The notes: generated by a model from the sequence alone, not told the origin. Positions 3,658 through 61,719 are shown, counted from the stretch's first letter. The stretch is 61,854 bases of DNA from Anaerolineae bacterium (GCA_034432855.1 DAOUBA010000147.1:1-61854), one strand, 5' to 3'. Numbers and translations: made by a program.

Positions 3658-3670
3658 ACCATACCCCCTC

Positions 3671-3756
3671 TGCGAATGTACGAATCTACGAATCCACGAA
3701 TATGCGAATGTGCCAGCGATGCGCCATTCGTCAGTTCGTCAATTCGCAAATTCGCT
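3671..3756. repeat. 8-nt-phased palindromic repeat (CGAAT arm / ATTCG arm)
   Basis: tgcgaatg tacgaatc tacgaatc cacgaata tgcgaatg, loop tgccagcgatgcg, then ccattcgt cagttcgt caattcgc aaattcgc. Lies between the mmsA stop and the ferritin-like gene start. Confidence 0.7.
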
Positions 3757-20876: not shown

Positions 20877-20958
20877 CAGGAAGAAAGATGCAAGAGACAA
20901 GATGCAGGAAGCAAGATGCACGACACCAACGATTTTTGCATCTTGCCTCTTGCTTCCT
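20877..20958. repeat. GCAAGAT/GCAGGAA phased repeat forming a hairpin in the dnaK-dnaJ spacer
   Basis: gcaggaagaaagatgcaagagacaagatgcaggaagcaagatgca. Perfect 10-bp stem: gcaagatgca (20911-20920) with tgcatcttgc (20937-20946). Confidence 0.65.
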
Positions 20959-22848
20959 TTACGCTTCGTGGAACTCGCCTTCGACGACCTCTTCACCACC
21001 TGTGGGAGGCTCCTCCCCTGGAGGAGGCGGGGTGCCGGGGCCGGCCCCCTGGTACATCGCGGCCCCTACCTGCTGCAAGACCTGGCTCAACTCGTCCGTG
21101 CGGCGACGGATGGCGGCAACATCGCTCCCCTCCATCGCCCTCCTGAGCGCCTCGATCTTGGCACTCACTTCAGAGCGGAGGTGGCCCGGCACTTTATCTC
21201 CCTGCTCACGCAAAAGTTTCTCGGCGGCATAGACCGCGTTATCGGCGATGTTACGCGCCTCTACCTCCTCCTTCTTCTTCTGGTCTTGCTCGCGGAACTG
21301 CTCGGCTTCGCGCACCATGCGCTCGACCTCGTCTTCGGCGAGGCCGCTGGAGGGAATGATCTGCATGGATTGCTCGCGCCCGGTGGCTTTGTCCTTGGCC
21401 GAGACGTTGAGGATGCCGTTGGCGTCAATGTCGAAGGTGACCTCGATCTGCGGGACACCGCGCGGCGCGGGCGGGATGCCGTCGAGAATAAAACGCCCCA
21501 GACTCTTGTTGTCATAGGCCATGGGGCGCTCGCCCTGCACGACGTGGATCTCTACCTCCGTCTGGCCGTCGGTGGCGGTGGAAAAGATCTGGCTCTTGCG
21601 CGTCGGGATGGTGGTGTTGCGCTCGATGAGCGGGGTCGCCACATGGCCCAGCGTCTCGATGCTCAGCGTGAGCGGGGTCACGTCCAGGAGCAGGATGTCC
21701 TTGACCTCGCCTCCGAGGACGGCGGCCTGGATCGCTGCGCCCAGCCCCACGACTTCGTCGGGGTTGACGCCCTTGTGAGGCTCCTTACCGAAGAACTCGG
21801 CCACCTTCTTCTGAACGGCGGGCATCCGCGTCATGCCGCCCACCAGGATAACCTCATCAATCTCGGAGGGTTTGAGTTTGGCATCGGCCAGCGCCTGCCT
21901 GCAGGGCCCGATGGTGCGCTCGATCAGGTCCTCGGTCAGTTGCTCCAGTTTGGCGCGGGTGAGTCTCATCTGCAGGTGCTTGGGGCCAGAAGCGTCGGCA
22001 GTGATGAAAGGTAGGTTGATCTCGGTCTCCATCACGGTGGAGAGTTCGATCTTGGCCTTCTCGCAGGCCTCGCGCAGCCGCTGGAGCGCCTGACGGTCGT
22101 CGCGCAGGTCAATGCCCTGGTCCTTCTTGAACTCGTCGGCCACGTAGTCAATGATCCGGCGGTCCCAGTCATCGCCGCCCAGGAAAGTGTCGCCGTTGGT
22201 GGCGCGCACCTCAAAGACGCCCTCGCCGACGTCGAGGATGGAGATGTCGAACGTGCCGCCGCCCAGGTCGAAGACGGCGATGGTCTCATCCTTCTTTCTG
22301 TCGAGGCCGTAGGCCAGGCTGGAGGCCGTCGGCTCGTTGATGATGCGCAACACTTCGAGACCGGCGATGCGACCGGCGTCTTTGGTTGCCTGGCGCTGGC
22401 TGTCGTTGAAGTAGGCGGGGACGGTGATGACTGCCTGGGTGATCGGCTCGCCCAGGTAGGCCTCGGTGTCGGTCTTGATCTTTTGCAGGATCATGGCCGA
22501 GATCTCTGGCGGGCTGTATTCCTTGCCGCCCATCCAGACGCGCACATCACCGTTAGGCGCTGCGGTGACCTTGTAGGGGACGAGTTTGATCGCCCGCTGC
22601 ACCTCAGGATCGTCGAACTTGCGGCCCATGAAACGCTTGATCGAAAAGATGGTGTTCTCGGGGTTGACGACGGCCTGACGTTTGGCGACCTGCCCGACCA
22701 TGCGTTCTCCTGTGCTGGGGTTGATTGCCACGACCGAAGGCACCAATCGCCCGCCTTCGGCGCTGGGGATGACGGTGGGCTCGCCGCCCAACATGATCCC
22801 ACAGACAGAGTTCGTCGTACCCAAATCAATGCCGATGATTTTGCCCAT
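20959..22848 (-). CDS. dnaK: chaperone DnaK (Hsp70)
   Basis: [28 protein letters not shown] signatures. Confidence 0.97.
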
Positions 22849-24594: not shown

Positions 24595-24789
24595 ACAAGC
24601 CGCTGCTTGATCCAATTGCCGGGCCCAGTAGATGAAGAAAGCCGGCGATTACCCACATATTTTGCCCATTAACAATTTACCCCTTCACTCTCCACCCGCG
24701 GGATGGTTCTCCGAGAGACAAGAGCCAGGGCATACCCTATCCACGCTTGTCAAACATCGGCGTTTGGGGTATGCTTCGAGGGTGAAACG

Positions 24790-25293
24790 ATGTCGCCGAT
24801 TCCTGTGATCGCCTTTGTGGGCCGCTCGAAAAGCGGCAAGACCACGCTGCTGGAGAAATTGATCCGCGAACTTGCACGGCGCGGGTATCATGTCGCTGCC
24901 GTCAAGCACACCGCTCACCCCATTGAACCCGACGCGCCGGGGAAGGACACCTACCGCTTCGTACAGGCCGGCGCCGTTGAGGCCATCCTGGCTGCGCCGG
25001 AGATGACGCTGGAAGAAGCACTGGCCGGCGTGCGGGACGTTGACCTCGTGTTGGTCGAGGGCTACAAGCGGGCGGACGTGCCCAAGATCGAGGTGAGCAG
25101 GGGGCAGGAAGCAGGAAGCAAGATGCAAGATGCGGGAGGTTTGGTGTGCGCAGAAGATGAAAGATTGTTAGCCATAGTCTCTGACCGGCGGTTCGACGTG
25201 GATGTGCCGCAGTTTGATGTGCACGATGTGGTGCGGCTGGCCGATTGGATTGAGGAGCGGTTTTTGGGGCGAATCAGCAAGTTGGCGAAGTAG
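24790..25293 (+). CDS. mobB: molybdopterin-guanine dinucleotide biosynthesis adapter MobB
   Basis: VIAFVGRSKSGKTTLLEKLI P-loop, VAAVKHTAH, DLVLVEGYK. ATG at 24790. Confidence 0.85.
   Translation: MSPIPVIAFVGRSKSGKTTLLEKLIRELARRGYHVAAVKHTAHPIEPDAPGKDTYRFVQAGAVEAILAAPEMTLEEALAGVRDVDLVLVEGYKRADVPKIEVSRGQEAGSKMQDAGGLVCAEDERLLAIVSDRRFDVDVPQFDVHDVVRLADWIEERFLGRISKLAK
25104..25133. repeat. GCAGGAA/GCAAGAT phased repeat inside the mobB CDS
   Basis: gcaggaagcaggaagcaagatgcaagatgc. The 17-mer 25111-25127 is identical to 20904-20920. It encodes QEAGSKMQDA. Confidence 0.65.
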
Positions 25294-25328: not shown

Positions 25329-26858
25329 ATGTGCATCAATCGCAAGGAATGGCGCTGGGTACTTTGGCTAACGCTGGCACTGGTGATCGCCAGTTGTGTG
25401 CCCTATCTCATCGCCTGGGCTGTGACGCCACAGGGCGCGCATTTCACCGGCATTCTCTTCAACCCGCAGGACGGCCATTCGTATCTCGCCAAGATGCGCC
25501 AGGGGCTTGCCGGATCGTGGTTGCTCCGCCTGCCCCATACGCCGGAGCCGCAGCGGGGCGCGCCGGTGTATCTCTTTTATCTGCTGCTGGGGCACATCGC
25601 GCGCTGGACGGGCTCATCGCTTATCCCGATGTACCACGCAGCGCGGGTGCTGGGCGGCGCGCTGATGCTGGTGACGCTCTACGCGTTAGCCTCACATCTG
25701 AGCACGGATGTCGGTGAGCGCCGGGCGATGTTCCTTCTGGCAGCGGTAGGGTCAGGTATGGGGTGGCTGGCAGGATCGTTGGGCCTGATGACAGCCGACT
25801 TGTGGGTGCCGGAAGCATTCCCCATCTATGCGCTGCTGGCAAATGCACACTTTCCGCTGGCGACCGGATTGATGGCTGGTATTGCGTATTGCGTATTGCG
25901 TGTTACGTATGGCGGTAGGCGTTCTGGGCTGTGGGGATTGGGCATAACCATCCTGGCCGCGACGTTGGGCGTGGTGCAGCCATTCGGGCTGGTCTCTGTG
26001 TTCGGCGGGGTAGGGGTGATGCTGGTAGCGCAGGCTGTGCGCGAGCGGCGAATGCCGTGGCGGGGGACTTTCTGGACTGTGACGGCCATAGCGGCGGCGC
26101 TTCCATATCCACTATACATGCAATGGGCGCTGAACCGCGATCCGGTGTTGGCGGTGTGGAATGCTCAGAATGTGACCCCCTCTCCGCCGCTGTGGGATTG
26201 GACGCTGAGTTACGGGCTGGTGCTGGTGCTGGCCGTGTTGGGAAGCGTCGTCGCAGCGCGGCGCGGCGCCGGCGGCTGGTTGCTCCTGGGCTGGGGCGCC
26301 GCGACGCTGGTGGGGATGTATCTGCCGTTGCCCTTGCAGCGCCGCCTGAGCCTGGGGTTGGGTGTGCCACTGGGATTGCTGGCGGGCCTGGGGTGGTGGC
26401 GGCTGCGCGCCCGACTCCGGCCACGTAGCAGAGGCCTGGCGCATGGGCTGGTGGTAGCCTTTTGTGCGCTGACGCCGCTCTTTCTCGTGCTGATGGCGGT
26501 GCTGGCTGCGTCCGGCGGCTCGTCGTGGTTCTACCTGAGCGGCGACGAATGGGCTGCGCTCGCCTGGCTACGTGAGGAGGGCCATCCTGACGCGGTTGTG
26601 TTGTGCGAACCGCGACTGGGGCTATTCGTGCCTGCGTGGGCCGGGCAGCCGGTCGTTTACGGCCACCCATTCGAGACGGTGAACGCGGCTCAGCGCAAGG
26701 CGCAGGTGGAGGCGTTCTTTCGTGGGGAGATGACCGGCGAGGAACAGGAGCGCTTTTTGCGGGAGAACGACGTTGGGTATGTGGTGGGAGACGGTGGGGT
26801 AGGAGTTTGGGGATTGGTGTTCAGGTCAGGGAGTGTGAGGGTGTATGAGGTGAGGTAG
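25329..26858 (+). CDS. polytopic membrane protein, putative GT-C-fold glycosyltransferase (paralog A)
   Basis: 509 aa with many TM segments. Shares SYLAKMRQG, NAQN.T.SPP and YLP..LQRRL with the next gene. Confidence 0.7.
   Translation: MCINRKEWRWVLWLTLALVIASCVPYLIAWAVTPQGAHFTGILFNPQDGHSYLAKMRQGLAGSWLLRLPHTPEPQRGAPVYLFYLLLGHIARWTGSSLIPMYHAARVLGGALMLVTLYALASHLSTDVGERRAMFLLAAVGSGMGWLAGSLGLMTADLWVPEAFPIYALLANAHFPLATGLMAGIAYCVLRVTYGGRRSGLWGLGITILAATLGVVQPFGLVSVFGGVGVMLVAQAVRERRMPWRGTFWTVTAIAAALPYPLYMQWALNRDPVLAVWNAQNVTPSPPLWDWTLSYGLVLVLAVLGSVVAARRGAGGWLLLGWGAATLVGMYLPLPLQRRLSLGLGVPLGLLAGLGWWRLRARLRPRSRGLAHGLVVAFCALTPLFLVLMAVLAASGGSSWFYLSGDEWAALAWLREEGHPDAVVLCEPRLGLFVPAWAGQPVVYGHPFETVNAAQRKAQVEAFFRGEMTGEEQERFLRENDVGYVVGDGGVGVWGLVFRSGSVRVYEVR
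25881..25910. repeat. ATTGCGT heptamer repeat inside a CDS
   Basis: attgcgt attgcgt attgcgt gttacgt at. Encodes IAYCVLRVTY. Confidence 0.6.
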
Positions 26859-26935
26859 GAGGGAGCAGGAGGCAGGAGGCAAGAGGCAGGGGGTGTTGAG
26901 GGATGGGGGATAGGCAATATGCGATATGCGAAAGA
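26855..26935. repeat. GCAGGAG(G) and ATATGCG phased repeats in an intergenic spacer
   Basis: ggagggagcaggaggcaggaggcaagaggcaggggg ... gataggcaatatgcgatatgcgaaagacg. Confidence 0.55.
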
Positions 26936-26950
26936 CGCGAGTGGGGTTTT

Positions 26951-28573
26951 ATGCTCGTATGGAGTGTGTTTGCTCTCGCCATCACGTCTGTCCCTTACGT
27001 TCTGGGCGCGATTTGGGCGACAGAGAACCGCGTCTTTGGCGGGTTTGTGTTTGCGCTGGAGGATTGCTACTCCTACTTAGCCAAGATGCGCCAGGGGGCC
27101 GAGGGGGCCTGGCTGTTTCACATTGCTTACACTGCTGAACCCCATATCGGCACACTGTTCTTCCCGTTCCATTTGCTGTTGGGGAAAATTGCAGCGCTTT
27201 TGCCGGGCAGAGATCTCACGCTGCGGCTGGTGTGGGTCTATCACATCGCGCGCTGGATTTTCGGGATGGGCCTGCTGCTGACCGTGTACCGCTTCCTGGC
27301 CGAATTCACGGCACGTGTGGCGGTGCGGCGGTTGGCCTGGCTGATGGTTACATTCGGCGGGGGACTCGGCTGGCTGTTGGTCACGCTGGGACAGCCCGGA
27401 TGGTTGGGCAGCCAGCCGCTCGACTTTATCCTCCCCGAAGGATTTACCTTTCTCGTCCTCTATGCTTTCCCCCACATCGCCCTTGCGCGGACCCTGCTCC
27501 TGTGGGGGGTGCTGTTTTTGCTTCGAGCCTGGGAATGCGATGACGGAATACGCAATACGCAATACGTATTTCGTATTCCGTGTTCCGTTTTGGCGGGTGT
27601 TGTATGGTTGCTGATGGGCTTCATCGTGCCGTTCTACATCGCCGTCGCGTGGGCAGTGACCGGCGCGGCGTGGATTGTGCTAGGGATCCGTAAACGGCGG
27701 GCGATGTGGCGCGAGGCGGCACAGGCAGGGATTGTGGCGCTCATCTCTTGTCCGATCGTGCTCTACAGCGCGTGGGTATTCAGAACTCAGCCGGTGTATA
27801 CGGTTTGGGCTGCGCAGAATACAATCCGGTCGCCGCACCCGTTGCACTACCTGGCGGCCTATGGCGTACCCCTGATGCTGGCCGTCTTTGCGTTGCGCGA
27901 CGCCTGGCACGAGAAGCGGCCCGTGTGGCTGGCGATCGCGTGGGTGGGCGTTGTGCCTCTCCTAGTCTACCTGCCGTTCAACCTGCAACGGCGGCTGGTG
28001 GAGGGCATGCAGGTACCGTTGAGCCTGCTGGCAGCGATGGGTCTCTGGAAGATCGCAGGTGAAGTCGGCAAGTTGAGCCCGCTATCCCGAATCTCGAATC
28101 TCAGGTCTGTACTGGTGATGATTGTTGGCATCGCCGTGTTGTTGCTGACGAACGTCATACTGGTCGCAGGGAACTGCCTGGCGTTGCGCGGATTGCCTGC
28201 GCCGGTCTACCGTGACGCCGGTGAGATCGCGGCGCTGGACTGGCTCGGCGGGCAGGTTGGGCCGACTGACGTCGTGCTCTCGGCTTACGAGACGGGGAAC
28301 TATCTTCCTGCGCGGATACGGGCGCGTTCGTTCCTGGGCCACGGGCCGGAGACCGTTTACTTTGCGGAGAAGAAACTGCTCGTGGCCCGCTTCTTCGATG
28401 AGGCGACAGGCGAAAGGTGGCGCTACGAGTTGCTGGACTATTATGGTGTGAACTATGTTTTTTGGGGCCCGGCGGAGCGGCGTCTGGGCAACTATGACCC
28501 GCACGTGTCGTCATATTACCTGTTGCCCGTCTACGAAGCAGGAGAATACTCCATTTTCAGGGTTGTGCAATAG
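26951..28573 (+). CDS. polytopic membrane protein, putative GT-C-fold glycosyltransferase (paralog B)
   Basis: Paralog of 25329-26858. ATG 26951 is preferred because the earlier ORF start (26903) lies in repeat DNA. Confidence 0.7.
   Translation: MLVWSVFALAITSVPYVLGAIWATENRVFGGFVFALEDCYSYLAKMRQGAEGAWLFHIAYTAEPHIGTLFFPFHLLLGKIAALLPGRDLTLRLVWVYHIARWIFGMGLLLTVYRFLAEFTARVAVRRLAWLMVTFGGGLGWLLVTLGQPGWLGSQPLDFILPEGFTFLVLYAFPHIALARTLLLWGVLFLLRAWECDDGIRNTQYVFRIPCSVLAGVVWLLMGFIVPFYIAVAWAVTGAAWIVLGIRKRRAMWREAAQAGIVALISCPIVLYSAWVFRTQPVYTVWAAQNTIRSPHPLHYLAAYGVPLMLAVFALRDAWHEKRPVWLAIAWVGVVPLLVYLPFNLQRRLVEGMQVPLSLLAAMGLWKIAGEVGKLSPLSRISNLRSVLVMIVGIAVLLLTNVILVAGNCLALRGLPAPVYRDAGEIAALDWLGGQVGPTDVVLSAYETGNYLPARIRARSFLGHGPETVYFAEKKLLVARFFDEATGERWRYELLDYYGVNYVFWGPAERRLGNYDPHVSSYYLLPVYEAGEYSIFRVVQ
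27545..27587. repeat. palindromic AATACGC-unit repeat inside a CDS
   Basis: ggaatacg caatacg caatacg tatttcg tattccg tgttccg. ggaatacg (27545-27552) pairs with cgtattcc (27572-27579). Encodes GIRNTQYVFRIPCSV. Confidence 0.65.
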
Positions 28574-28582
28574 GGGATGCGG

Positions 28583-28640
28583 CATTGGTAATTAGGGATT
28601 GGGGAACGGGTAAACTGCAAACTTGCAAACTTGCAAACTG
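28583..28640. repeat. ATTGGGGA-like and CTTGCAAA phased repeats
   Basis: cattggtaattagggattggggaacggg taaactgcaaacttgcaaacttgcaaactgg. Overlaps the annotated N-terminus of the YfhO-like ORF. Confidence 0.6.
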
Positions 28641-31140
28641 GCCGGCCGTTGCATGCTGCTCGTTGTTTGCCCTTTGCCTTTTGTGGCGGCCGCTTTTTGC
28701 CGGCGAAGCCTTCTATTGGGGCGCGCCGCTCTTGCAGTTTATCCCCTGGCAGCGTTTTGCCGCCGAAATGTGGCGATCGGGCCACGTGCCGTTGTGGAAT
28801 CCGCTGGTCGGATGTGGGGCCCCCCTGGCAGCCAACTACCAGTCAGCCGTGTTCTACCCGCTGAACGCGCTCTACCTGCTGCTCCCGGCCGAGATGGCAC
28901 TCGGTTGGACGGTCGCTCTGCACCTGGCGCTCGCCGGGGTGGGGATGTACGCCTGGGGGCGCGCGGTTGGCCTGGAGCGATTCCCGGCGCTCATTGCCGG
29001 GCTGGCGCTGGAAGGGAGCGGCTTTCTGGTGGCGCGCGCGGCGCTCTTCCCCAGCATCGCGCTCACCTTCCCCTGGGTCGCCGTCTGGCTATGGCGCGGC
29101 GAGATGCTCGTGCAGCGCTGTCGGCTTCAAGATGCGCTCTGGCTGGGATTGGCGCTGGGGATGGGGCTGCTGGCGGGGCATGCACAAACTGCCTTCTACG
29201 GTGGCTTGCTGTTGGCGGCATATTGCGTGTTTCGTGTTGCATGCTCCGTTTCCCGGAATTGGCGACCGTTCATTGTTCATTGTTCGTTGTTCATTGTCTC
29301 ATTGCTGATCGGCGTTGGTCTGGCAGCGGTGCAGTTGTTGCTTACTGCGGAGTTGATGTTGCAATCCCAACGTGCTAGTGGCGTGGATTATGACTTTGCG
29401 ATGACCTATTCGTTCTGGCCGTGGCGGCTGTTCACATTCCTCGCGCCGGATTTCTTCGGCAACCCTGGCCGGGGCGACTATTGGGGGTATGCCACATATT
29501 GGGAAGACGCGGGGTACGTAGGGGTGTTACCGTTGTTGCTGGCGGTGTGGGCAGTGGTGCGGAAGGGCAGGGGAGCAGGGGAGCGGAGGAGCAGGGGTGC
29601 AAGGGCGCAGGTTGGGTTTTGGGCAGGGTGTGTTGTGGCGGGGTTGGTGCTGGCGTTGGGCAAGAATACGCCGCTGTTCTCGTTCCTGTTCCGCCACATC
29701 CCTACCTTCGACCTGTTCCAGGCCCCGGCGCGCTGGCTGGCCGTGACGACCGTGGCGCTGGCGGCGCTGGCCGGGATTGGCGCGCAGGTGTGGCCTGTGG
29801 GACGAGCAGGTCAACGGCAGGGAACGTTATGGCTGGTTATCGGCGTGGCGCTGGCTGTCGGGGGGTGGGCCGCGCCACACCTGATCGCCGGGGAGCGACT
29901 GGCGACCTTTGGCGCGGCCACGCTGCGATTTGGCGTCACGTTGGCTGTGGCAGGCGCGCTCGTGCTATGGCGAACGAGTACCAGGCTTCAGCCCAATGCT
30001 ACTAACATTCCATCTGGGCAGTGCGTGGGACAGGCTTTCCAGCCTGTCGGCGTGGGAGAGGCTTTCCAGCCTGTCGGCAGCCTGGAAAGGCTGCCCCATA
30101 CCCGCTTTGCGCCCGTCGAAAAGCCTCCAACAAGGCAGCGAACGCGAAAAGCTAGTGCCATGGGGCTCCGGCCTGCTTGGGTACGTGTTGTTCTCCTATG
30201 GCAGGTCGCCGTCCTTATCTGCGTTGGGCTTGACCTGCTTTTGTTCGGCTGGCCGCTCGTGCCGTCGGTGGATCGCACACTGTACCAGGGTAATGCGCAC
30301 GCGGTTTTGAGCCAGTTGCGGAACGGGCGTATCTACTGGCCCACCGATCCGGCCCACCCCGGAAGCGAGTACGATGCTGAATACCGCCTCAAGTTCGGCT
30401 ATTTGACCTTTCGCAGTTTCGGGCCGCGTGATGTGGCGTATTGGCGCGGCATGCGCGAGATGCTTATCCCCAATATCGGCATGCTCGACGGCATTGCAAC
30501 CGCCAACGATTTTGATCCTCTGCTGGTGAGCCGTTACGCCGAGATGATGGCAGCAATCCCTGCTTCGCCGAATCTCCTGCGTGTGATGGGCGTGACGCAC
30601 ATCGCCAGCGACCGAACCCGGCCAACCGGGGAGCCGGTCTATACGAGTACCGACATCACACTCTACCATCTTTCCAACGCTCTGGGCCGCGCCTGGATCG
30701 TCCCTGCCGCGCGCCAGGTTCCTGCCGACCAGATGCTCGCTGCCCTTACCAGCCCCACCTTCGACCCTGCCACCCACGTGCTGATCGAGGCTTCACCCCC
30801 TTACCCCAATCCCTATTCCCTAATCCCTAATCCCTATACCCTCTCCTTGCACGATACCCCCAACGGCGTTACAATACGCGCCGCACTGGATGCGCCTGGC
30901 TACCTGGTGTTGGCCGATACCTGGTACCCAGGCTGGCAGGCAAAAGTAGACGGCAAACCTGTCGAGATCCTGCGCGCGAATCATGCCTTTCGAGCGGTGT
31001 ATCTGGACGCCGGAGGGCATACGGTGGAAATGGTCTATCGGCCCTGGTCATTCATTGCTGGGATGGGTGTGTCGGGCATGATGGGGGCTGGTTGGTTGGT
31101 TAGTTGGTTAGTTGGTAGGCTGAGGAGACGAGGTGCATAA
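28585..31140 (+). CDS. YfhO-family membrane glycosyltransferase-like protein
   Basis: 851 aa. YfhO-like N-terminal motif (LLQFIPWQRFAAEMWRSGHVPLWNPLVGCGAPLAANYQSAVFYPLN), many TM segments and a C-terminal extracytoplasmic domain. The start (TTG 28585) is uncertain. Confidence 0.7.
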   Translation: MVIRDWGTGKLQTCKLANWPAVACCSLFALCLLWRPLFAGEAFYWGAPLLQFIPWQRFAAEMWRSGHVPLWNPLVGCGAPLAANYQSAVFYPLNALYLLLPAEMALGWTVALHLALAGVGMYAWGRAVGLERFPALIAGLALEGSGFLVARAALFPSIALTFPWVAVWLWRGEMLVQRCRLQDALWLGLALGMGLLAGHAQTAFYGGLLLAAYCVFRVACSVSRNWRPFIVHCSLFIVSLLIGVGLAAVQLLLTAELMLQSQRASGVDYDFAMTYSFWPWRLFTFLAPDFFGNPGRGDYWGYATYWEDAGYVGVLPLLLAVWAVVRKGRGAGERRSRGARAQVGFWAGCVVAGLVLALGKNTPLFSFLFRHIPTFDLFQAPARWLAVTTVALAALAGIGAQVWPVGRAGQRQGTLWLVIGVALAVGGWAAPHLIAGERLATFGAATLRFGVTLAVAGALVLWRTSTRLQPNATNIPSGQCVGQAFQPVGVGEAFQPVGSLERLPHTRFAPVEKPPTRQRTRKASAMGLRPAWVRVVLLWQVAVLICVGLDLLLFGWPLVPSVDRTLYQGNAHAVLSQLRNGRIYWPTDPAHPGSEYDAEYRLKFGYLTFRSFGPRDVAYWRGMREMLIPNIGMLDGIATANDFDPLLVSRYAEMMAAIPASPNLLRVMGVTHIASDRTRPTGEPVYTSTDITLYHLSNALGRAWIVPAARQVPADQMLAALTSPTFDPATHVLIEASPPYPNPYSLIPNPYTLSLHDTPNGVTIRAALDAPGYLVLADTWYPGWQAKVDGKPVEILRANHAFRAVYLDAGGHTVEMVYRPWSFIAGMGVSGMMGAGWLVSWLVGRLRRRGA
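29221..29305. repeat. phased TTCGTGT / CATTGTT repeats inside a CDS
   Basis: tattgcgtgtttcgtgttgcatgctccg ... ttcattgttcattgttcgttgttcattgtctcattgc. Encodes YCVFRVACSV...FIVHCSLFIVSLLI. Confidence 0.55.
29566..29610. repeat. GCAGGGGA purine-rich phased repeat inside a CDS
   Basis: ggcaggggagcaggggagcggaggagcaggggtgcaagggcgcag. Positions 29574-29597 match 31639-31662 at 22/24. Confidence 0.65.
30033..30095. repeat. 27-nt-period direct repeat plus inverted copy inside a CDS
   Basis: ggctttccagcctgtcggc at 30033-30051 and 30060-30078, then agcctggaaaggctgcc. Encodes GQAFQPVGV GEAFQPVGS. Confidence 0.7.
30796..30843. repeat. AATCCCT phased repeat inside a CDS
   Basis: ccccttaccccaatccctattccctaatccctaatccctataccc. 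30804-30815 is the exact reverse complement of 28593-28604. Confidence 0.65.
31089..31118. repeat. GTTGGTTA 8-mer repeat at the CDS 3' end
   Basis: tggttggttggttagttggttagttggtag. Encodes GWLVSWLVGR. Confidence 0.6.
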
Positions 31141-32281
31141 CCGCCATTGGTTTCGCCCCTGGGTCGTCGTGTTGGCGCTGGCGTTGAGCTATGTGGCGCT
31201 GACCCTGGTTCGCTATGATGGCGACCCGATGATGTTCGTCCTCGCGGGCACACGCTATAGCCGGGGTGAACCTGAGGGCACACCGGGCTATGACGGCCAG
31301 TTCGCCTATTTTATCGCGCGCGATCCGTTGAACGGTTGGCGGTATTGTGATGCGCCATCCTACCGTTATCAGCGCATCCTCTATCCCATCCTGGCGTGGG
31401 CGGTGGCGTTGGGACGGCCCGGTGTTGTGCCCTGGACGCTGATCGTGATCAACATAGCGGCACTTGCCGGGGGAACGTACTTTACCGAGCGCCTGCTCGC
31501 TGAGCACCGCGTGAGCCGCTGGTATGCGCTGGCCTACGGTCTCTACGGCGGCCTGGTCGCCGGTCTGCGCCTCGACCTGACCGAGCCGTTGGCGTATGGG
31601 TTGGTGCAGACGGGGCTATGGGCGTGGGGGCGGAGGGAAGCAGGGGAGCGGAGAAGCGGGGGAGCGGAGGGGCGACACGCAATATGCAATACGGAATACG
31701 TCTTACTGGCCCTTGCCGCACTCGCAAAAGAGACTGCACTACTCGCCACGTTCGGCCTGCTCCTGTACCTGGTGCTGGCGCGGCGCTGGCGCGAGGCTCT
31801 GACCTTGGGCTTGATCGTTGGGCTTCCCTTTGTCGCCTGGCAAGTGATCCTGCGTGTCTGGCTGGGCGAATGGGGTATCGGTTCCGGCGGCGATATGGCA
31901 ACTCGCTTCGAGGTCATCCCTTTCGCGGGATTGTGGCGCGTGGCGACGACCAGCCTGCCGGCATTTTGGCTCCTGTTCGTTATTGAGGGACCGTTGTTCA
32001 TGCTGCCTACCCTCTGGGCGCTCTATGCCTCGATCCGAGATCTGATGAGGGGGCAAGGGCATCCTTGGGTTGCGGTGTTGTTTGTTCAAGCCGCTGCGTT
32101 GCCCTTTTTGCCCTTTTCGACTTGGCGGGAGCCGCTGGCGATGGCCCGGTTGGCCGTGGGCCTGGTTGCTGCAACCCTGCTGTATGGTGCACAGAGACGC
32201 TCACGACGAGTGCTGAACTATAGCCTGCTGTGGCTGGTAACCCTGGCACTGCTCGTCAACGAAAGCACGTTGCCCATCTAG
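31133..32281 (+). CDS. polytopic membrane protein, putative surface-glycopolymer glycosyltransferase (GT-C-like)
   Basis: 382 aa, about 9-10 TM segments, GYDGQFAYFIARDP motif. GTG start overlaps the stop of the preceding gene. Confidence 0.65.
   Translation: MHNRHWFRPWVVVLALALSYVALTLVRYDGDPMMFVLAGTRYSRGEPEGTPGYDGQFAYFIARDPLNGWRYCDAPSYRYQRILYPILAWAVALGRPGVVPWTLIVINIAALAGGTYFTERLLAEHRVSRWYALAYGLYGGLVAGLRLDLTEPLAYGLVQTGLWAWGRREAGERRSGGAEGRHAICNTEYVLLALAALAKETALLATFGLLLYLVLARRWREALTLGLIVGLPFVAWQVILRVWLGEWGIGSGGDMATRFEVIPFAGLWRVATTSLPAFWLLFVIEGPLFMLPTLWALYASIRDLMRGQGHPWVAVLFVQAAALPFLPFSTWREPLAMARLAVGLVAATLLYGAQRRSRRVLNYSLLWLVTLALLVNESTLPI
31625..31705. repeat. composite purine-rich plus AATACG phased repeat inside a CDS
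   Basis: gggggcggagggaagcaggggagcggagaagcgggggagcggagggg then cacgcaatatgcaatacggaatacg. Encodes GRREAGERRSGGAEGRHAICNTEY. Confidence 0.65.
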
Positions 32282-32282
32282 A

Positions 32283-32364
32283 ACGTAATGCGTAACACGT
32301 AAGGTGTAATCACGTTTTACGTCTTGCGCTTTACGTTTTACGTGTTACGCCTTACGCCTCACGG
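32283..32364. repeat. CGTAA/TTACG phased palindromic element
   Basis: acgtaatgcgtaacacgtaaggtgtaat / cacgttttacgtcttgcgctttacgttttacgtgttacgccttacgcctcacg. Homologous to 48903-48978. Confidence 0.7.
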
Positions 32365-32373
32365 AGGTCATCC

Positions 32374-45770: not shown

Positions 45771-45790
45771 ATCAAAGTAGCGAGTAGACA

Positions 45791-45828
45791 AGTAGACAAG
45801 GGGCGAATGACCCCTTGTCTACTTTTTA
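45791..45828 (+). terminator. intrinsic terminator built from GTAGACA phased repeat
   Basis: Perfect 13-bp stem agtagacaagggg / ccccttgtctact, 7-nt loop, T-tract. The flanks repeat gtagaca / tgtctac units (45776-45848). Confidence 0.75.
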
Positions 45829-45867
45829 CTTGTCTACTTACCTACTTCCGGGTACAATCTAGGCGGC

Positions 45868-48883: not shown

Positions 48884-48902
48884 GTAAACCGTACTTGAGC
48901 AA

Positions 48903-48978
48903 AAGCGTAATGCGTAAAACGTAAGGCGTGACCGGCGACTACGTTTTACGAGTTACGCTTTACGAGTTACGTTTTACT
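48903..48978. repeat. CGTAA/TTACG phased palindromic element
   Basis: aagcgtaatgcgtaaaacgtaaggcgtg / ctacgttttacgagttacgctttacgagttacgttttac. 48906-48929 matches 32284-32307 at 22/24. Confidence 0.7.
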
Positions 48979-48982
48979 CCCC

Positions 48983-49081
48983 GGGGGTGGTTGGGGCCCG
49001 GTGGCCTCCTCGGTCTTCAAAACCGCTGGCGGGCCGCGCCGAGCGGGCCGCGGTGGGTTCGACTCCCATCCACTCCCGCCA
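48983..49081 (+). tRNA. selC: tRNA-Sec (anticodon TCA)
   Basis: 99 nt. 8-bp acceptor stem (GGGGGTGG/CCACTCCC), 6-bp D-stem with CGGT loop, anticodon loop CTTCAAA, long variable arm, 5-bp T-stem with GGTTCGACTCC, discriminator G and an encoded CCA. The anticodon stem has only 4 clean pairs. Confidence 0.78.
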
Positions 49082-54560: not shown

Positions 54561-54580
54561 CGCACGCTCCTCAAGGATTT

Positions 54581-54720
54581 TACCACGACGGACACAAAGG
54601 ACACGAAGTGATCTGAAGGACGCAGATGCCACAACCCTTTCGGTCACTCGTTCCAGTTTTACCTGACTCTGCGTCTCTTCAATACCTTCAACCTTTGTGT
54701 CCTTCGTGTCCTTTGTGGTA
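54581..54720. repeat. AAGGACAC-family inverted repeat pair upstream of gatC
   Basis: Left arm taccacgacggacacaaaggacacgaag; right arm acctttgtgtccttcgtgtcctttgtggta, about 80 nt apart. Same family as 17-90. Confidence 0.65.
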
Positions 54721-58333: not shown

Positions 58334-59123
58334 GTTCTGGCAATACCGTGAGTTGTTGCGCAATCTAGTCGTGCGCGACGTCAAGGTGCGCTATAAGAAT
58401 TCGATCCTGGGCGTCGCTTGGTCGTGGCTCAACCCGTTGCTGATGATGATCGTCTATACCATATTCTTCACGATTCTGATGCGCAACACTAACTTTCCTC
58501 ACTACCCCGTCTTCCTCCTGAGCGGGCTTTTGCCCTGGAACTTCTTCAGCGAATCGGTCACGTCGGCCACCGGCGCCATCGTCAACAATGCTCATCTCAT
58601 CAAAAAGGTCTACTTCCCCCGCGAGATCCTGCCCATCTCCATCGTGTTTTCGGGGCTGATCAACTTCATCATCGCTTTGCCGGTTCTTTTTGCTATGACG
58701 CTCATCTTCGGTGTACACCTGACGCCGTGGGTGTTGCTGCTACCGATCACTATCCTGATTCAGGTGATCTTTACCATCGGATTGACGCTGGTCCTCTCGA
58801 CGCTGAACGTCTTTTACCGCGATACCCAATTCATCCTCAGCGTGCTCATGTTGGCGTGGTTCTTCCTGACGCCTGTGTTCTATCCCATCGAGACGGTGCC
58901 GCAAAGCGCCACCCTATTGGGCGTCACGTTCAATGCCCGTCTATGGCTGTACCGGCTGAACCCGATGGCCTCCATCATCGCCTCGTACCGCGATCTGCTT
59001 TATTGGGGCGCGCCGACAGGGTGGGATTTCCTGTTGCGTACCGCCGTTACGTCCCTATTCGTGCTCGTCGTAGGTTGTACCGTGTTCCTGCACTATGGCC
59101 CGCGCTTTGGCGAGGAGGTATAA
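58308..59123 (+). CDS. ABC-2 type (Wzm/TagG-like) polysaccharide export permease
   Basis: RELLRNLVVRDVKVRYKNSILGVAWSWLNPLLMM signature and six TM segments. Overlaps the GT4 gene by 26 nt. Confidence 0.8.
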   Translation: MAILKHLREFWQYRELLRNLVVRDVKVRYKNSILGVAWSWLNPLLMMIVYTIFFTILMRNTNFPHYPVFLLSGLLPWNFFSESVTSATGAIVNNAHLIKKVYFPREILPISIVFSGLINFIIALPVLFAMTLIFGVHLTPWVLLLPITILIQVIFTIGLTLVLSTLNVFYRDTQFILSVLMLAWFFLTPVFYPIETVPQSATLLGVTFNARLWLYRLNPMASIIASYRDLLYWGAPTGWDFLLRTAVTSLFVLVVGCTVFLHYGPRFGEEV

Positions 59124-59126
59124 CCC

Positions 59127-59189
59127 TCCTAACCCCTCCCCCTTTATCCCCCTCCCCTTCCCCCCGCTATGCGAGGGGAAGGGGAGGGG
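59127..59189. repeat. C-rich/G-rich hairpin element (TCCTAACCCCTCCC family)
   Basis: tcctaacccctccc then a perfect 15-bp stem cccctccccttcccc (59149-59163) / ggggaaggggagggg (59175-59189). Confidence 0.75.
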
Positions 59190-59214
59190 GCAGGGGGTGA
59201 GGTTGGGGGTACCG

Positions 59215-61719
59215 ATGACCGACCAACCGTTTGCTGAAATCGCGGTCCTGGCGCCAGGCGTGGAAATGCCGGCCTTTACCTACGAGGTGCCCCCGGCGCT
59301 GCAGGGCCGCCTGAAGGAGGGTTCACTCGTCATCGTTCCCTTCGGCCCGCGGCGGCTCTATGGCGTCGTCCTCACGCTCGCGTCTGTATCCCCCGTCGCC
59401 GGGACGCGCCCGGTCGAGTCGCTGGTGGACCCCGAGCCGGTGCTGCTGCCGGCGCAGATCGCGCTGGCGCGCTGGTTGAGCCGCGAATACCTCGCGCCAC
59501 TCCACGAGTGTCTTGCCCTGATGCTGCCGCCGGGGGTGGTGGGTTACGCCGACGTCGTGCTCTCGCTGGCAGGCGAGATGCCCGCGAGGGTAACACCCGC
59601 CCAGCGCCGGTTGATTGCCCTGCTCCAGGAGCGCGGCCCGCTGCGCGGCGCCCAACTCGACGGACTTTTGTGCGGCGTGGACTGGCGCACGGCTGCCGGG
59701 CAACTCGTGCGCCGCGGCGTTATTGCCCGCGAGTCCTTCCTCGCCCCACCGCGCGCTCGCCCCAGACAGGTGCGCACTGTGCAATTCGTCCCCCTCGCTG
59801 ACGTGGAGGCGGCGCTGAAAGGACTCCGCAGCGAGGTCTATCGGGACATTATCGGTTTCTTGCAGGCGGAGGACGGCCCGGTGGACGTCAGTTGGGTCTA
59901 TGCCGAGACCGGCTGTGAGCGCCGTCACCTCGATACATTGGCCGAGCGCGGCCTGGTCGCCTTCGATACCGAAGCGGCCTGGCGCGATCCTCTGGCCGGG
60001 CAGGTCTTTATCCCCACCACGCCGCCGCCCCTCACAGCCGACCAACAGGCTGCCTGGACCCCCATAGAATCCGCAATCTGCAATCTGCAATCTGCAATCT
60101 TCTTACTCCACGGCGTCACCGGCTCTGGCAAGACCGAGATCTATTTGCGCGCGGTGGCAGAGGTGTTGAGGCAAGGCCGGCGTGCGTTCGTCCTTGTCCC
60201 CGAGATCTCGCTCACCCCGCAGACGGTTGCCCGTTTTGCCGCGCGCTTCCCCGGCCGCGTCGCCGTCCTCCACAGTGCGCTCACCGAGGGCGAGCGGTAC
60301 GACGTCTGGCGGCGCGCCCGTGCCGGGCTGGTGGACGTCGTCGTAGGGCCGCGCTCGGCGCTCTTTGCGCCGCTGATGCCGCTGGGGTTGATCGTGCTGG
60401 ACGAGGAACACGACGAGAGTTACAAGCAGGAGGCCCCGCGCCCGCGTTACCGCGCCCGCGACGCCGCAGTGGAACTGGCCCGCCTGACCGGAGCGACACT
60501 CATCCTCGGTTCCGCCACGCCCAGCCTGGAATCGTACCTGCGGGCGCAGCGCGGCGAATTCACCCTGCTGGAGATGCCCCATCGCATCATGGGCCACGCC
60601 CGCCGCCTGCGCGACCTTCAGGCCCACTACCGCGTCTCCGGCAGCGGCTACCACACGCTACGCGACGGCCCCGCCGAAGCGCGTTACCGGCCCCTGCCGC
60701 CGGTGCAAGTGGTGGACCTGCGCGCCGAACTGCGCGCGGGCAACGTCTCCATCTTTAGCCGTGCCCTCCAGCAGGCGCTGGACGAGGCGCTGGGACGTGG
60801 CGAGCAGGCGATCCTTTTTCTCAACCGACGCGGGACGGCCACCTTTGTCCTCTGCCGGGATTGCGGCCACGTCCTCCGTTGCCCGCATTGCGATACCCCT
60901 CTGACTTATCACGGCCCGCGCGCCCACCTGGTCTGCCATCACTGCAATCACCGTGAACCGCAAACCGACGAATGCCCCCGCTGCGGCAGCCAGCGCATCC
61001 GCTACTTTGGCCTGGGCACCGAACGGGTCGAGCAGGCGGTACGGGAGCGCTGGCCGGACGCGCGTCTCCTGCGCTGGGATCGCGACACCGCCCGCCCGCA
61101 CGAGGCCCACGCGGGCATCCTCCAGCGCTTCGCCGATGGCAAGGCCGACATCCTCATTGGCACGCAGATGATCGCCAAAGGGCTGGACCTGCCACTGGTG
61201 ACCGTTGTCGGCGTGATCTCGGCCGATACCGCGCTCAACCTACCCGACTTTCGCGCCGCCGAGCGCACCTTCCAGTTGCTCGCTCAGGTGGCCGGGCGCG
61301 CCGGACGGGGGCTGTTGGGCGGACGGGTCATTCTTCAGACCTACCACCCCGACCACTATGCCATTGTGGCCGCCGCCGCCCACGATTACGCCGGCTTCAC
61401 CCTGCGGGAACTATCCTTCCGCCGTGAGCAGGGCTATCCGCCCTATTGTCGCCTGACTAGACTGGTCTATGAAGACGCCAGTCCCTCCCGCGCCCAACGG
61501 GAGGCCGAAGTGTTGGCCGGGACCCTGCGCGATGCGCTGGCGCGGCGCGAGTTGCCGCCAACCGACCTGATCGGCCCGGCTCCGGCCTTCTTCAGCCGGC
61601 TGCGCGACCGTTACCGCTGGCAACTGCTCCTGCGCCATCCCGACCCTGCCGAATTCCTGCGCGCTGTCCAAGTTCCTGCCGGCTGGCGGGTGGATATAGA
61701 CCCGGTTAGCGTGTTGTAG
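59215..61719 (+). CDS. priA: primosomal protein N' (replication restart helicase PriA)
   Basis: Walker A GVTGSGKTE, DEEHD, Cys-rich zinc region CRDCGHVLRCPHCD...CHHCN...CPRCGS. ATG at 59215. Confidence 0.92.
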   Translation: MTDQPFAEIAVLAPGVEMPAFTYEVPPALQGRLKEGSLVIVPFGPRRLYGVVLTLASVSPVAGTRPVESLVDPEPVLLPAQIALARWLSREYLAPLHECLALMLPPGVVGYADVVLSLAGEMPARVTPAQRRLIALLQERGPLRGAQLDGLLCGVDWRTAAGQLVRRGVIARESFLAPPRARPRQVRTVQFVPLADVEAALKGLRSEVYRDIIGFLQAEDGPVDVSWVYAETGCERRHLDTLAERGLVAFDTEAAWRDPLAGQVFIPTTPPPLTADQQAAWTPIESAICNLQSAIFLLHGVTGSGKTEIYLRAVAEVLRQGRRAFVLVPEISLTPQTVARFAARFPGRVAVLHSALTEGERYDVWRRARAGLVDVVVGPRSALFAPLMPLGLIVLDEEHDESYKQEAPRPRYRARDAAVELARLTGATLILGSATPSLESYLRAQRGEFTLLEMPHRIMGHARRLRDLQAHYRVSGSGYHTLRDGPAEARYRPLPPVQVVDLRAELRAGNVSIFSRALQQALDEALGRGEQAILFLNRRGTATFVLCRDCGHVLRCPHCDTPLTYHGPRAHLVCHHCNHREPQTDECPRCGSQRIRYFGLGTERVEQAVRERWPDARLLRWDRDTARPHEAHAGILQRFADGKADILIGTQMIAKGLDLPLVTVVGVISADTALNLPDFRAAERTFQLLAQVAGRAGRGLLGGRVILQTYHPDHYAIVAAAAHDYAGFTLRELSFRREQGYPPYCRLTRLVYEDASPSRAQREAEVLAGTLRDALARRELPPTDLIGPAPAFFSRLRDRYRWQLLLRHPDPAEFLRAVQVPAGWRVDIDPVSVL
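60073..60100. repeat. GCAATCT heptamer x4 inside priA
   Basis: gcaatct gcaatct gcaatct gcaatct. Encodes AICNLQSAI, four codons upstream of the Walker A motif. Confidence 0.8.

Follow-up and report, generated by a model that had tools for sequence, protein, structure and literature searches.

Heptanucleotide repeats are the commonest class of long simple sequence repeat (LSSR) in many prokaryotes, and an origin by slippage has been proposed for them, as far as the survey of Mrazek et al. (2007) is summarised in PMC4679880 and PMC4692102. In cyanobacteria, short tandemly repeated repetitive (STRR) sequences with 7-bp units often form hairpins between genes (PMC2670836). G-rich heptamers of the GGGNATC type are enriched in Xanthomonas and Nostoc, with a bias to non-coding DNA (PMC4692102), and TAACTGA arrays of Beggiatoaceae and some cyanobacteria occasionally stand in a stop-free orientation inside open reading frames (ORFs), where they encode the 7-aa repeat LSVISYQ (MacGregor 2015, PMC4679880). 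A GTAG-tagged superfamily of repetitive extragenic palindromic (REP) sequences is reported in Chloroflexi, sometimes within ORFs (PMC3733652). Here we analyse arrays of 7- and 8-nt units in a 61,854-nt stretch of an Anaerolineae bacterium (GCA_034432855.1, DAOUBA010000147.1:1-61854; hereafter the window), in particular those inside four consecutive plus-strand genes of polytopic membrane proteins at 25329-32281. The arrays are a lineage-level instance of the known repeat class, plus one in-frame REP element. They are probably of the STRR/LSSR type, changing by unit-wise slippage from a favoured repertoire and filtered by the reading frame and by what the proteins tolerate.

A comparison with cyanobacterial STRR (PMC2670836) shows common 7-bp tandem units, several families per genome, dispersed sites and intergenic hairpins; the likeness to STRR proposed in an initial annotation of the window fits the 7/8-nt arrays. 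They differ in that the host belongs to the Chloroflexota, many more unit types are present and octamers are also common. The Nostoc repeat GGGGA(C/T)T (PMC4692102) is matched by GGGGATT at 28593, and the Nostoc unit GACCAAT/TTGGTCA (bioRxiv 10.1101/2022.06.06.494920) is found in 7 arrays of 5 related loci, not in the window. The Beggiatoaceae also have heptamer arrays in a filamentous host with some copies in ORFs. There, one unit (TAACTGA) is favoured, its location is almost always intergenic and 169 direct sets are counted versus 1 indirect set (PMC4679880), whereas here the units are diverse, coding copies are numerous and inverted composites are frequent. Heptanucleotide LSSRs, in the summaries given by PMC4679880 and PMC4692102, resemble the present arrays in an excess of 5-11-nt units with 7 nt dominant and in large, G+C-rich genomes of non-pathogens. 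The same summarised survey finds coding regions likeliest for units that are multiples of three, whereas the genes studied here commonly hold units of 7 and 8 nt, whose copy number changes by three units at a time.

The distinctness of these arrays is thus one of degree only: by rough gene calls they are mostly coding, their units are many, octamers are common, and envelope genes are as dense in them as spacers. The initial annotation had not recognised the combination as described, but heptanucleotide LSSRs, STRR hairpins, heptamer arrays in ORFs (PMC4679880) and REPs in ORFs (PMC3733652) are each known in other phyla. A literature search of incomplete coverage found no report on heptamer repeats in Chloroflexi or Anaerolineae. 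The growth of Anaerolineae is filamentous, as in the cyanobacterial hosts of STRR.

Repeat arrays in the membrane-protein genes and across the clade

Arrays of head-to-tail 7- and 8-nt units, with 2.3-5.6 copies and 70-100% matches, are detected by Tandem Repeats Finder (TRF). Between 25.9 and 31.7 kb, 12-13 such arrays of period 7 or 8 are found (Table 1). The whole window has 18 period-7 and 10 period-8 rows versus 1.35 and 1.95 in dinucleotide-preserving shuffles, and therefore about 0.3 arrays would be expected in this 5.8-kb stretch. The excess is larger in number in a related set of 21 array-bearing loci (347 kb), where observed and expected counts are 221 versus 12 for period 7, 72 versus 11 for period 8, 44 versus 2.3 for period 14 and 24 versus 0.3 for period 21. 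The mini-repeats described in the initial annotation are thus real, and their motifs are more frequent than composition predicts. They are in frame within intact ORFs as it had stated, and the peptides it quoted are all present in the translations. Most of its sites stand. Those at 28583 (two units only) and 29221 (a degenerate run over the conserved YxxFR with invariant R217, unscored by TRF in the window) are weak, and the TRF matches at 26909-26931 and 28084-28102 were absent from its list.

Several unit families recur within the region. The 12-mer TAGGGATTGGGG at 28593-28604 is, as had been noticed, the exact reverse complement of CCCCAATCCCTA at 30804-30815, because the unit family GGGATTR/CCCTAAT occurs in both orientations; the two-unit part at 28593 is the reverse complement of the array at 30798, and (AAACTTGC)x3.6 itself is located at 28612-28639. 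The inverted composite of P2 is resolved by TRF into ACGCAAT x3.4 (27543-27566) and CGTATTC x3.4 (27565-27588), and the array of P4 into GCGGGGGA at 31622-31669 and ACGCAAT at 31677-31700. The ACGCAAT family is found at 4 sites of the window, and the GTTCATT unit is seen in 8 related genomes.

The four genes (P1, P2, a YfhO-family gene and P4) are followed by a GT2 glycosyltransferase gene and a methyltransferase gene. Homologs of the window proteins carry Anaerolineae or Chloroflexota annotation, and the order P1-P2-YfhO-P4-GT2 is found again in about 30 loci of metagenome-assembled genomes (MAGs) labelled Anaerolineales or Anaerolineae. An assembly artefact or a set of pseudogenes is ruled out, because the ORFs are unbroken and about 30 independent assemblies show them in synteny. 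The anatomy gives no support to CRISPR-like arrays, inteins or programmed frameshifting, which were also weighed. The P1/P2 duplication is common to all relatives; the repeats are far younger than this duplication, as had been suggested.

The initial annotation had described the repeats in four consecutive genes. They are not peculiar to these: arrays pervade the intergenic DNA of the window, its other genes and about 20 related genomes. Their sites span 3.7 kb to 60 kb of the window, which covers 62 kb of the genome, and most of the longer spacers hold arrays (3669-3754, 20884-20959, 26865-26890, 32283-32363, 45775-45839 and 48902-48977). By rough gene calls, 226 of the 279 arrays are coding, whereas a bias to non-coding DNA is reported for the repeats of cyanobacteria and Xanthomonas (PMC4692102). 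The same calls give 1.37 arrays per kb in P1-P4 orthologs, 0.44 in other coding sequence and 1.26 in intergenic DNA, with a chance level of about 0.05. Since the densities of P1-P4 and of intergenic DNA are similar, the four membrane genes and non-coding DNA are about equally tolerant of arrays, and these genes are not unique carriers. In the array-poor relatives (eight Chloroflexota loci, 143 kb) only 6 period-7 arrays are found. Array-rich and array-poor clades are interleaved in a neighbour-joining tree of YfhO orthologs.

Identity to array-free orthologs is 15% for the residues that arrays encode in the window versus 58% elsewhere (Mann-Whitney p = 2e-35), and the segments are thus lineage-specific, as first supposed. 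In ortholog alignments the arrays fall in indel-rich loops, at N- or C-termini, or in hydrophobic stretches (GTTCATT, TGGTTAGT). Identical loops hold other units in other genomes. The P2 loop, for example, has FTFHVSR, ISNLKSQ or HASRITQ versus IRNTQYVFRIP in the window, and in other genomes the loop at 28084-28102 is occupied by arrays of the ISNLKSQ type. Loops are short and ordinary in array-poor relatives; that of P4 has about 9 aa there versus about 30 aa in the window. A crude hydropathy scan places most arrays between transmembrane (TM)-like segments, in agreement with the predicted loop location. An AlphaFold2 model of YfhO from a 26-sequence alignment (mean predicted local distance difference test score 45.7, predicted template-modelling score 0.28) is too poor for placing the segments. 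The word "inserted" is apt for 31622-31700, which is a net insertion of about 20 aa versus array-free P4 orthologs. It is not apt for several arrays that fill pre-existing variable segments: those at 25879 (no net length gain versus P1 orthologs), 29268 and 30798 substitute for sequence of like length.

Table 1. Genes, repeat arrays and the REP-containing element of the four-gene region and its borders
Feature	Position	Strand	Encoded peptide	Remarks
(AGCAGGA)x3.6 and (GCAAGAT)x2.3, adjacent	25096-25133		SRGQEAGSKMQDA	in mobB-like gene (24703-25293)
P1	25329-26858	+	509 aa	polytopic membrane protein; no Pfam match; paralog of P2, about 31-33% identity
(GTATTGC)x5.1 in P1	25879-25914		GIAYCVLRVTYGG	variable loop; reverse complement of ACGCAAT family
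(GCAGGAG)x3.7	26865-26890			intergenic, between P1 and P2
P2	26903-28573	+	556 aa	polytopic membrane protein; no Pfam match; distant paralog of P1
(GATATGC)x3.3 in P2	26909-26931		DRQYAICE	immediately 3' of start codon
(AATACGC)n then (GTATTYC)n in P2	27543-27588		DGIRNTQYVFRIPCSV	inverted composite; hypervariable loop; RNA hairpin, z = -4.7
(ATCTCGA)x2.7 in P2	28084-28102		LSRISNL	
YfhO-family gene (PF09586)	28585-31140	+	851 aa	membrane glycosyltransferase-like
ATTAGGG/ATTGGGG (2 units) then (AAACTTGC)x3.6 in YfhO	28593-28639		KLQTCKLANW	N-terminus
(GTTCATT)x5.1 in YfhO	29268-29304		PFIVHCSLFIVSL	hydrophobic; overlaps TM-like segment
(GCAGGGGA)x5.6 in YfhO	29551-29611		RKGRGAGERRSRGARA	purine-rich; short loop
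REP-containing element in YfhO	30023-30163	+	47 codons, in frame	141 nt; tandem GTGG-tagged hairpin, inverted hairpin, tail of about 65 nt
(CCCTAAT)x4.7 in YfhO	30798-30836		PPYPNPYSLIPNPY	common to relatives down to about 70% identity
(TGGTTAGT)x3.5 in YfhO	31089-31116		AGWLVSWLVG	C-terminal hydrophobic tail
P4	31133-32281	+	382 aa	membrane protein; NCBIfam AZOBR_p60025 cell-surface glycopolymer formation family
(GCGGGGGA)x5.5 then (ACGCAAT)x3.4 in P4	31622-31700		AWGRREAGERRSGGAEGRHAICNTEYV	
(ACGTAAN)n then (TTACGNN)n	32283-32363			intergenic heptamer hairpin, P4-GT2 spacer; z = -5.9

Length change and origin of the arrays

The arrays change length by whole units under a frame filter. This is most directly observed in pairwise DNA alignments of the window with two related loci, L048 and L049. 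The L048 alignment has 84.6% nt identity, and three of its largest indels fall in arrays; the others listed include several smaller ones (1-12 nt) and one of 27 nt at the alignment end, and two of these others are terminal in the alignment. The 26909-26931 array at the P2 N-terminus is longer by 21 nt, or 3 heptamers, in L048, and the octamer array at 29551-29611 is longer by 24 nt in the window than in both L048 and L049. The largest copy-number difference seen is in the intergenic GCAGGAG array at 26865-26890, which has about 21 units in L048 (L048:189-330) versus 3.7 in the window, a difference of about 125 nt. Versus L049, the coding array steps are 21, 24 and 24 nt, one of them the 28593-28639 array, in which L049 is longer by 24 nt (3 octamers); steps in the intergenic arrays are irregular. 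Arrays make up about 5% of the residues but are touched by 229 of the 326 indels between orthologs of at least 72% identity. The indel-length histogram from multiple alignments has weak peaks at 7 and 8 aa and is noisy, as gaps fragment in low-complexity columns. The unit-step argument therefore rests on the clean pairwise alignments.

In the explanation that we favour, a limited set of 7-8-nt units would seed the arrays, which would then grow and shrink by whole units, with replication slippage as the likely cause and escape of the 7-8-nt loops from repair as a likely part of it. Loops of this size usually exceed the range of MutS-type mismatch repair. In intergenic DNA arrays of any length would survive, often as hairpins of (unit)n followed by (reverse-complement unit)n. 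In genes an array would survive only if it had no stop codon and a net length divisible by 3, and this limit would explain why the clean pairwise coding changes are of 21 or 24 nt. Permissive sites would include inter-helix loops, N- and C-termini, and hydrophobic stretches if the unit encodes hydrophobic residues. Polytopic envelope-glycan proteins are rich in such places, and would therefore reach an intergenic-like array density. The encoded peptides, as predicted by translation, would be low-complexity linkers, presumably neutral and a by-product rather than a purpose.

Several observations weigh against slippage and filtering as the whole account. This account gives no reason for the scarcity of arrays in sister lineages. 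Of array pairs at the same locus, 11% share a unit (at most 1 mismatch, any rotation or strand), as do 6.5% of pairs from different genomes, compared with 1.8% for random heptamers, and some genomes hold 4-6 non-adjacent arrays of one unit. The window's P2 coding loop and an L019 intergenic spacer hold ACGCAAT hairpins with nearly identical arms, and the hairpins at 32283-32363 and 48905 have variant units in a common order. These shared units and twin hairpins suggest site-to-site copying or a unit-specific activity beyond plain slippage. In addition, the arms of the P2 hairpin change from AATACGC/GTATTYC in the window to AACACGC/GTGTTCC in L048 and both versions fold (z near -4.7). The pairing is kept via compensatory unit changes, which hints at selection or template switching. 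Site-to-site copying, template switching inside the hairpins or structural selection may thus contribute.

The arrays might instead be functional nucleic-acid elements, such as transcript-stabilising or terminator hairpins, G-quadruplexes, or sites for a heptad-reading protein, with the coding copies kept for their RNA or DNA role. We consider this unlikely. The window spacer arrays are mostly (unit)n followed by (reverse-complement unit)n and fold far beyond shuffles (z -3.6 to -6.5). A heptamer hairpin is found directly 5' of the Shine-Dalgarno sequence in the P4-GT2 spacer of five genomes of different clades, and the compensatory changes in the coding P2 hairpin point in the same direction. 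The heptamer repeats of cyanobacteria and Beggiatoaceae have been suggested to act in regulation (PMC2670836, PMC4679880, bioRxiv 10.1101/2022.06.06.494920), and the G-runs of GGGGATT and GCAGGGGA resemble the G-quadruplex-forming repeats of Nostoc and Xanthomonas (PMC4692102). However, most coding arrays are unstructured direct repeats, with z about 0 at 25870-25925 and 31615-31710, and an inverted partner array is found for 19 of the 226 coding arrays versus 9 when the units are reversed as a control. No folding is seen in the orthologous P2 loops of L049, L008 and L032, and units turn over fast at a given site. L004 and L005 carry unrelated elements in the P4-GT2 spacer, which is almost missing from L024 and L027. 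Of the segments initially listed, several were called self-complementary; this is true of the hairpins at 27543-27588 and 30026-30098 only. The generalisation that nearly all intergenic arrays are inverted hairpins is true of the window, but under a strict test it applies to 8 of 53 across all loci.

The arrays have also been weighed as contingency loci, in which slippage would switch envelope-glycan genes on and off (phase variation), for example under phage pressure. As in simple-sequence contingency loci, units that are not multiples of 3 stand in genes for surface structures: YfhO, the AZOBR_p60025 family and the adjoining GT2 build cell-surface glycopolymers, and some of the arrays are at gene 5' ends. 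Furthermore, the YfhO ortholog of L027 (L027:10541-10640) changes frame exactly inside (CGCTTAT)n, and one unit fewer would restore the frame, which places it one unit from an ON state. Either true slippage, giving an OFF state or a pseudogene, or a fault of assembly could account for the frame change. Yet it is 1 of roughly 110 orthologous genes, frame-shifting variants are not common among the relatives, and the coding array changes versus L048 and L049 are three-unit steps. The tracts are short (3-5.6 copies), imperfect (mostly 78-95% matches) and nearly always in frame, unlike known switches, and they are equally dense in intergenic DNA and present in the housekeeping genes priA and mobB. 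The length-change data argue against frequent on/off switching, and we regard a contingency role as quite improbable. A similarly low probability is given to miniature mobile elements copied between sites by a unit-specific activity, as REPs are by REP-associated tyrosine transposases (RAYTs), the coding arrays being the in-frame survivors. The restricted and partly genome-specific repertoire, the near-identical ACGCAAT hairpins at non-homologous sites of different genomes and the common variant-unit order at 32283 and 48905 would fit such copying, and the window has true dispersed small elements (the REP element at 30023-30163 and an element with 9-mer terminal inverted repeats). But arrays of the same unit do not share flanks, and 151 canonical units are found among the 279 arrays, which argues against a single sequence-specific element. 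The length differences inside existing arrays are of whole units, fitting local slippage, and no candidate transposase turned up, with no window scan aimed at transposases. A dedicated array-writing activity, period-specific and partly unit-specific, might instead exist in some Anaerolineales and be shared or exchanged with filamentous heterocystous cyanobacteria and Beggiatoaceae, so that envelope-loop targets diversify or switch. The sharing is proposed because units such as GACCAAT and GGGGATT recur there. The restricted repertoire, the twin hairpins, the compensatory coding hairpin and the lone frameshift are all compatible with this activity and none demands it; we hold it to be very improbable.

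The origin and role of heptamer arrays is an old question, dating from their discovery in cyanobacteria, for which this Anaerolineales clade is a good comparative system. It offers dozens of syntenic loci, the same loops with different units, array-poor sister controls and unit-wise changes that are readable in alignments. For annotation, low-complexity peptides in Anaerolineae membrane proteins (FTFHVSR, IRNTQYA, ISNLKSQ and purine-rich RGxGE runs) are to be read as footprints of DNA repeats and not as functional motifs, and a MAG frameshift inside a heptamer array may be real slippage and not an assembly error. The finding is of value as a comparative system and for annotation, not as a new kind of biology.

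The REP-containing element in YfhO

The element at 30023-30163 has an origin separate from the 7/8-nt arrays, being an in-frame insertion of a mobile element that contains GT[AG]G-tagged REPs. The tagged hairpin GTGGGA-CAGGCTTTCCAGCCTG-TC is present as a tandem duplicate at 30023-30050 and 30050-30077, which TRF scores as a 27-nt unit x2.1 at 30023-30078, and an inverted hairpin, GGCAGCCTGGAAAGGCTGCC, follows at 30075-30098. Among YfhO orthologs the element is present in the window and in L048 only (L048:3470-3610), where the tag of the first hairpin is GTAG versus GTGG in the window. A metagenome scan for the 16-nt hairpin core gives at least 148 matches, by our estimate about the number due to chance in such a collection and meaningless alone. 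In nearly all of the matches listed, GT[AG]G lies two bases 5' of the core, and many contain inverted pairs. The conserved tag and the inverted pairs identify the REP family. An intergenic copy of the same dimer and tail of about 65 nt, with about 90% identity, is found on the minus strand at L127:120-250, on a contig from the sample of L048, and 30023-30163 is therefore an in-frame copy of a dispersed element. The window itself holds this one cluster only.

The element resembles GTAG-tagged REPs and their REPIN forms (REP doublets forming hairpins) in its tagged palindromic hairpin, its inverted dimer and its copy at a second locus, a likeness restricted to 30023-30163. It differs from them in the GTGG tag of the window and in the tail of about 65 nt. 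The initial annotation had compared the repeats to Rickettsia palindromic elements (RPEs). The comparison is fitting for 30023-30163, a palindromic insert in frame within a conserved protein, and for none of the other segments. Even here the element is not an RPE, since RPEs are CGTC-tagged and Rickettsia-specific (PMC3733652), whereas this one is GT[AG]G-tagged with a Chloroflexota host. It adds a clear Chloroflexota case of an in-frame REP-type element whose translation is predicted. In L049 (L049:5730-5800) the same YfhO loop, corresponding to about 30000-30180 of the window, has a different short insert, which encodes PFDDAQGRLRALL and has a small AGGCT-GCG-AGCCT hairpin.

Other small elements in the window and its relatives

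The purine-rich octamer arrays at 29567-29611 in YfhO and 31637-31669 in P4 have a common 24-nt higher-order unit, AGCAGGGGAGCGGAGRAGCRGGGG, about 22/24 identical by eye. Both are in the same reading frame (AGERRS), and their coding-strand G-runs could form G-quadruplexes. In priA (59095-61719), (AATCTGC)x4.7 at 60068-60100 encodes ESAICNLQSAIF near the start of the PriA DEAD domain, and a purine-rich inverted repeat is found near the 5' end of the gene (59148-59190).

Between P4 and GT2, heptamer hairpins of differing units are located at 32282-32373 of the window and at L003:9041-9105, L009:4029-4086, L019:13327-13409 and L049:7876-7959. The same spacer has a REP-like hairpin in L004 (L004:8878-8939) and another tandem element in L005 (L005:13479-13572), and it is nearly absent in L024 and L027. 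This spacer, directly upstream of the GT2 ribosome-binding site, is an apparent hotspot of small, mutually unrelated hairpin elements. A further heptamer hairpin, (AAAACGT)n then (ACGTTTT)n at 48902-48977, ends six bases before the selenocysteine tRNA (tRNA-Sec) gene at 48983-49081 (anticodon TCA). An Rfam scan of the window finds this tRNA only, and the arrays are covered by no known RNA family.

In low-G+C MAGs of Gammaproteobacteria and Patescibacteria, heptamer arrays of 4-5 copies (e.g. AATTCAT, TATACTT) are found inside the tblastn match range of YfhO homologs (L033:10567-10602, L036:2570-2785, L037:2125-2157 and L041:5940-5972), a composition in which chance matches are likelier. Of the P4 ortholog in L006 (L006:3828-4206), only two short matching pieces are left, which differ in frame, and residues ~62-225 are missing; it is probably the remnant of a deletion.

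Two copies of an element with terminal inverted repeats of 9-mer units (GGATTTTRCCACRAMGGACAC... / ...GTGTCCTTTGTGG) are located at 10-96 and 54575-54720 of the window. One copy is short, whereas about 70 nt of internal sequence are present in the second; the arrangement has the look of a miniature inverted-repeat transposable element.

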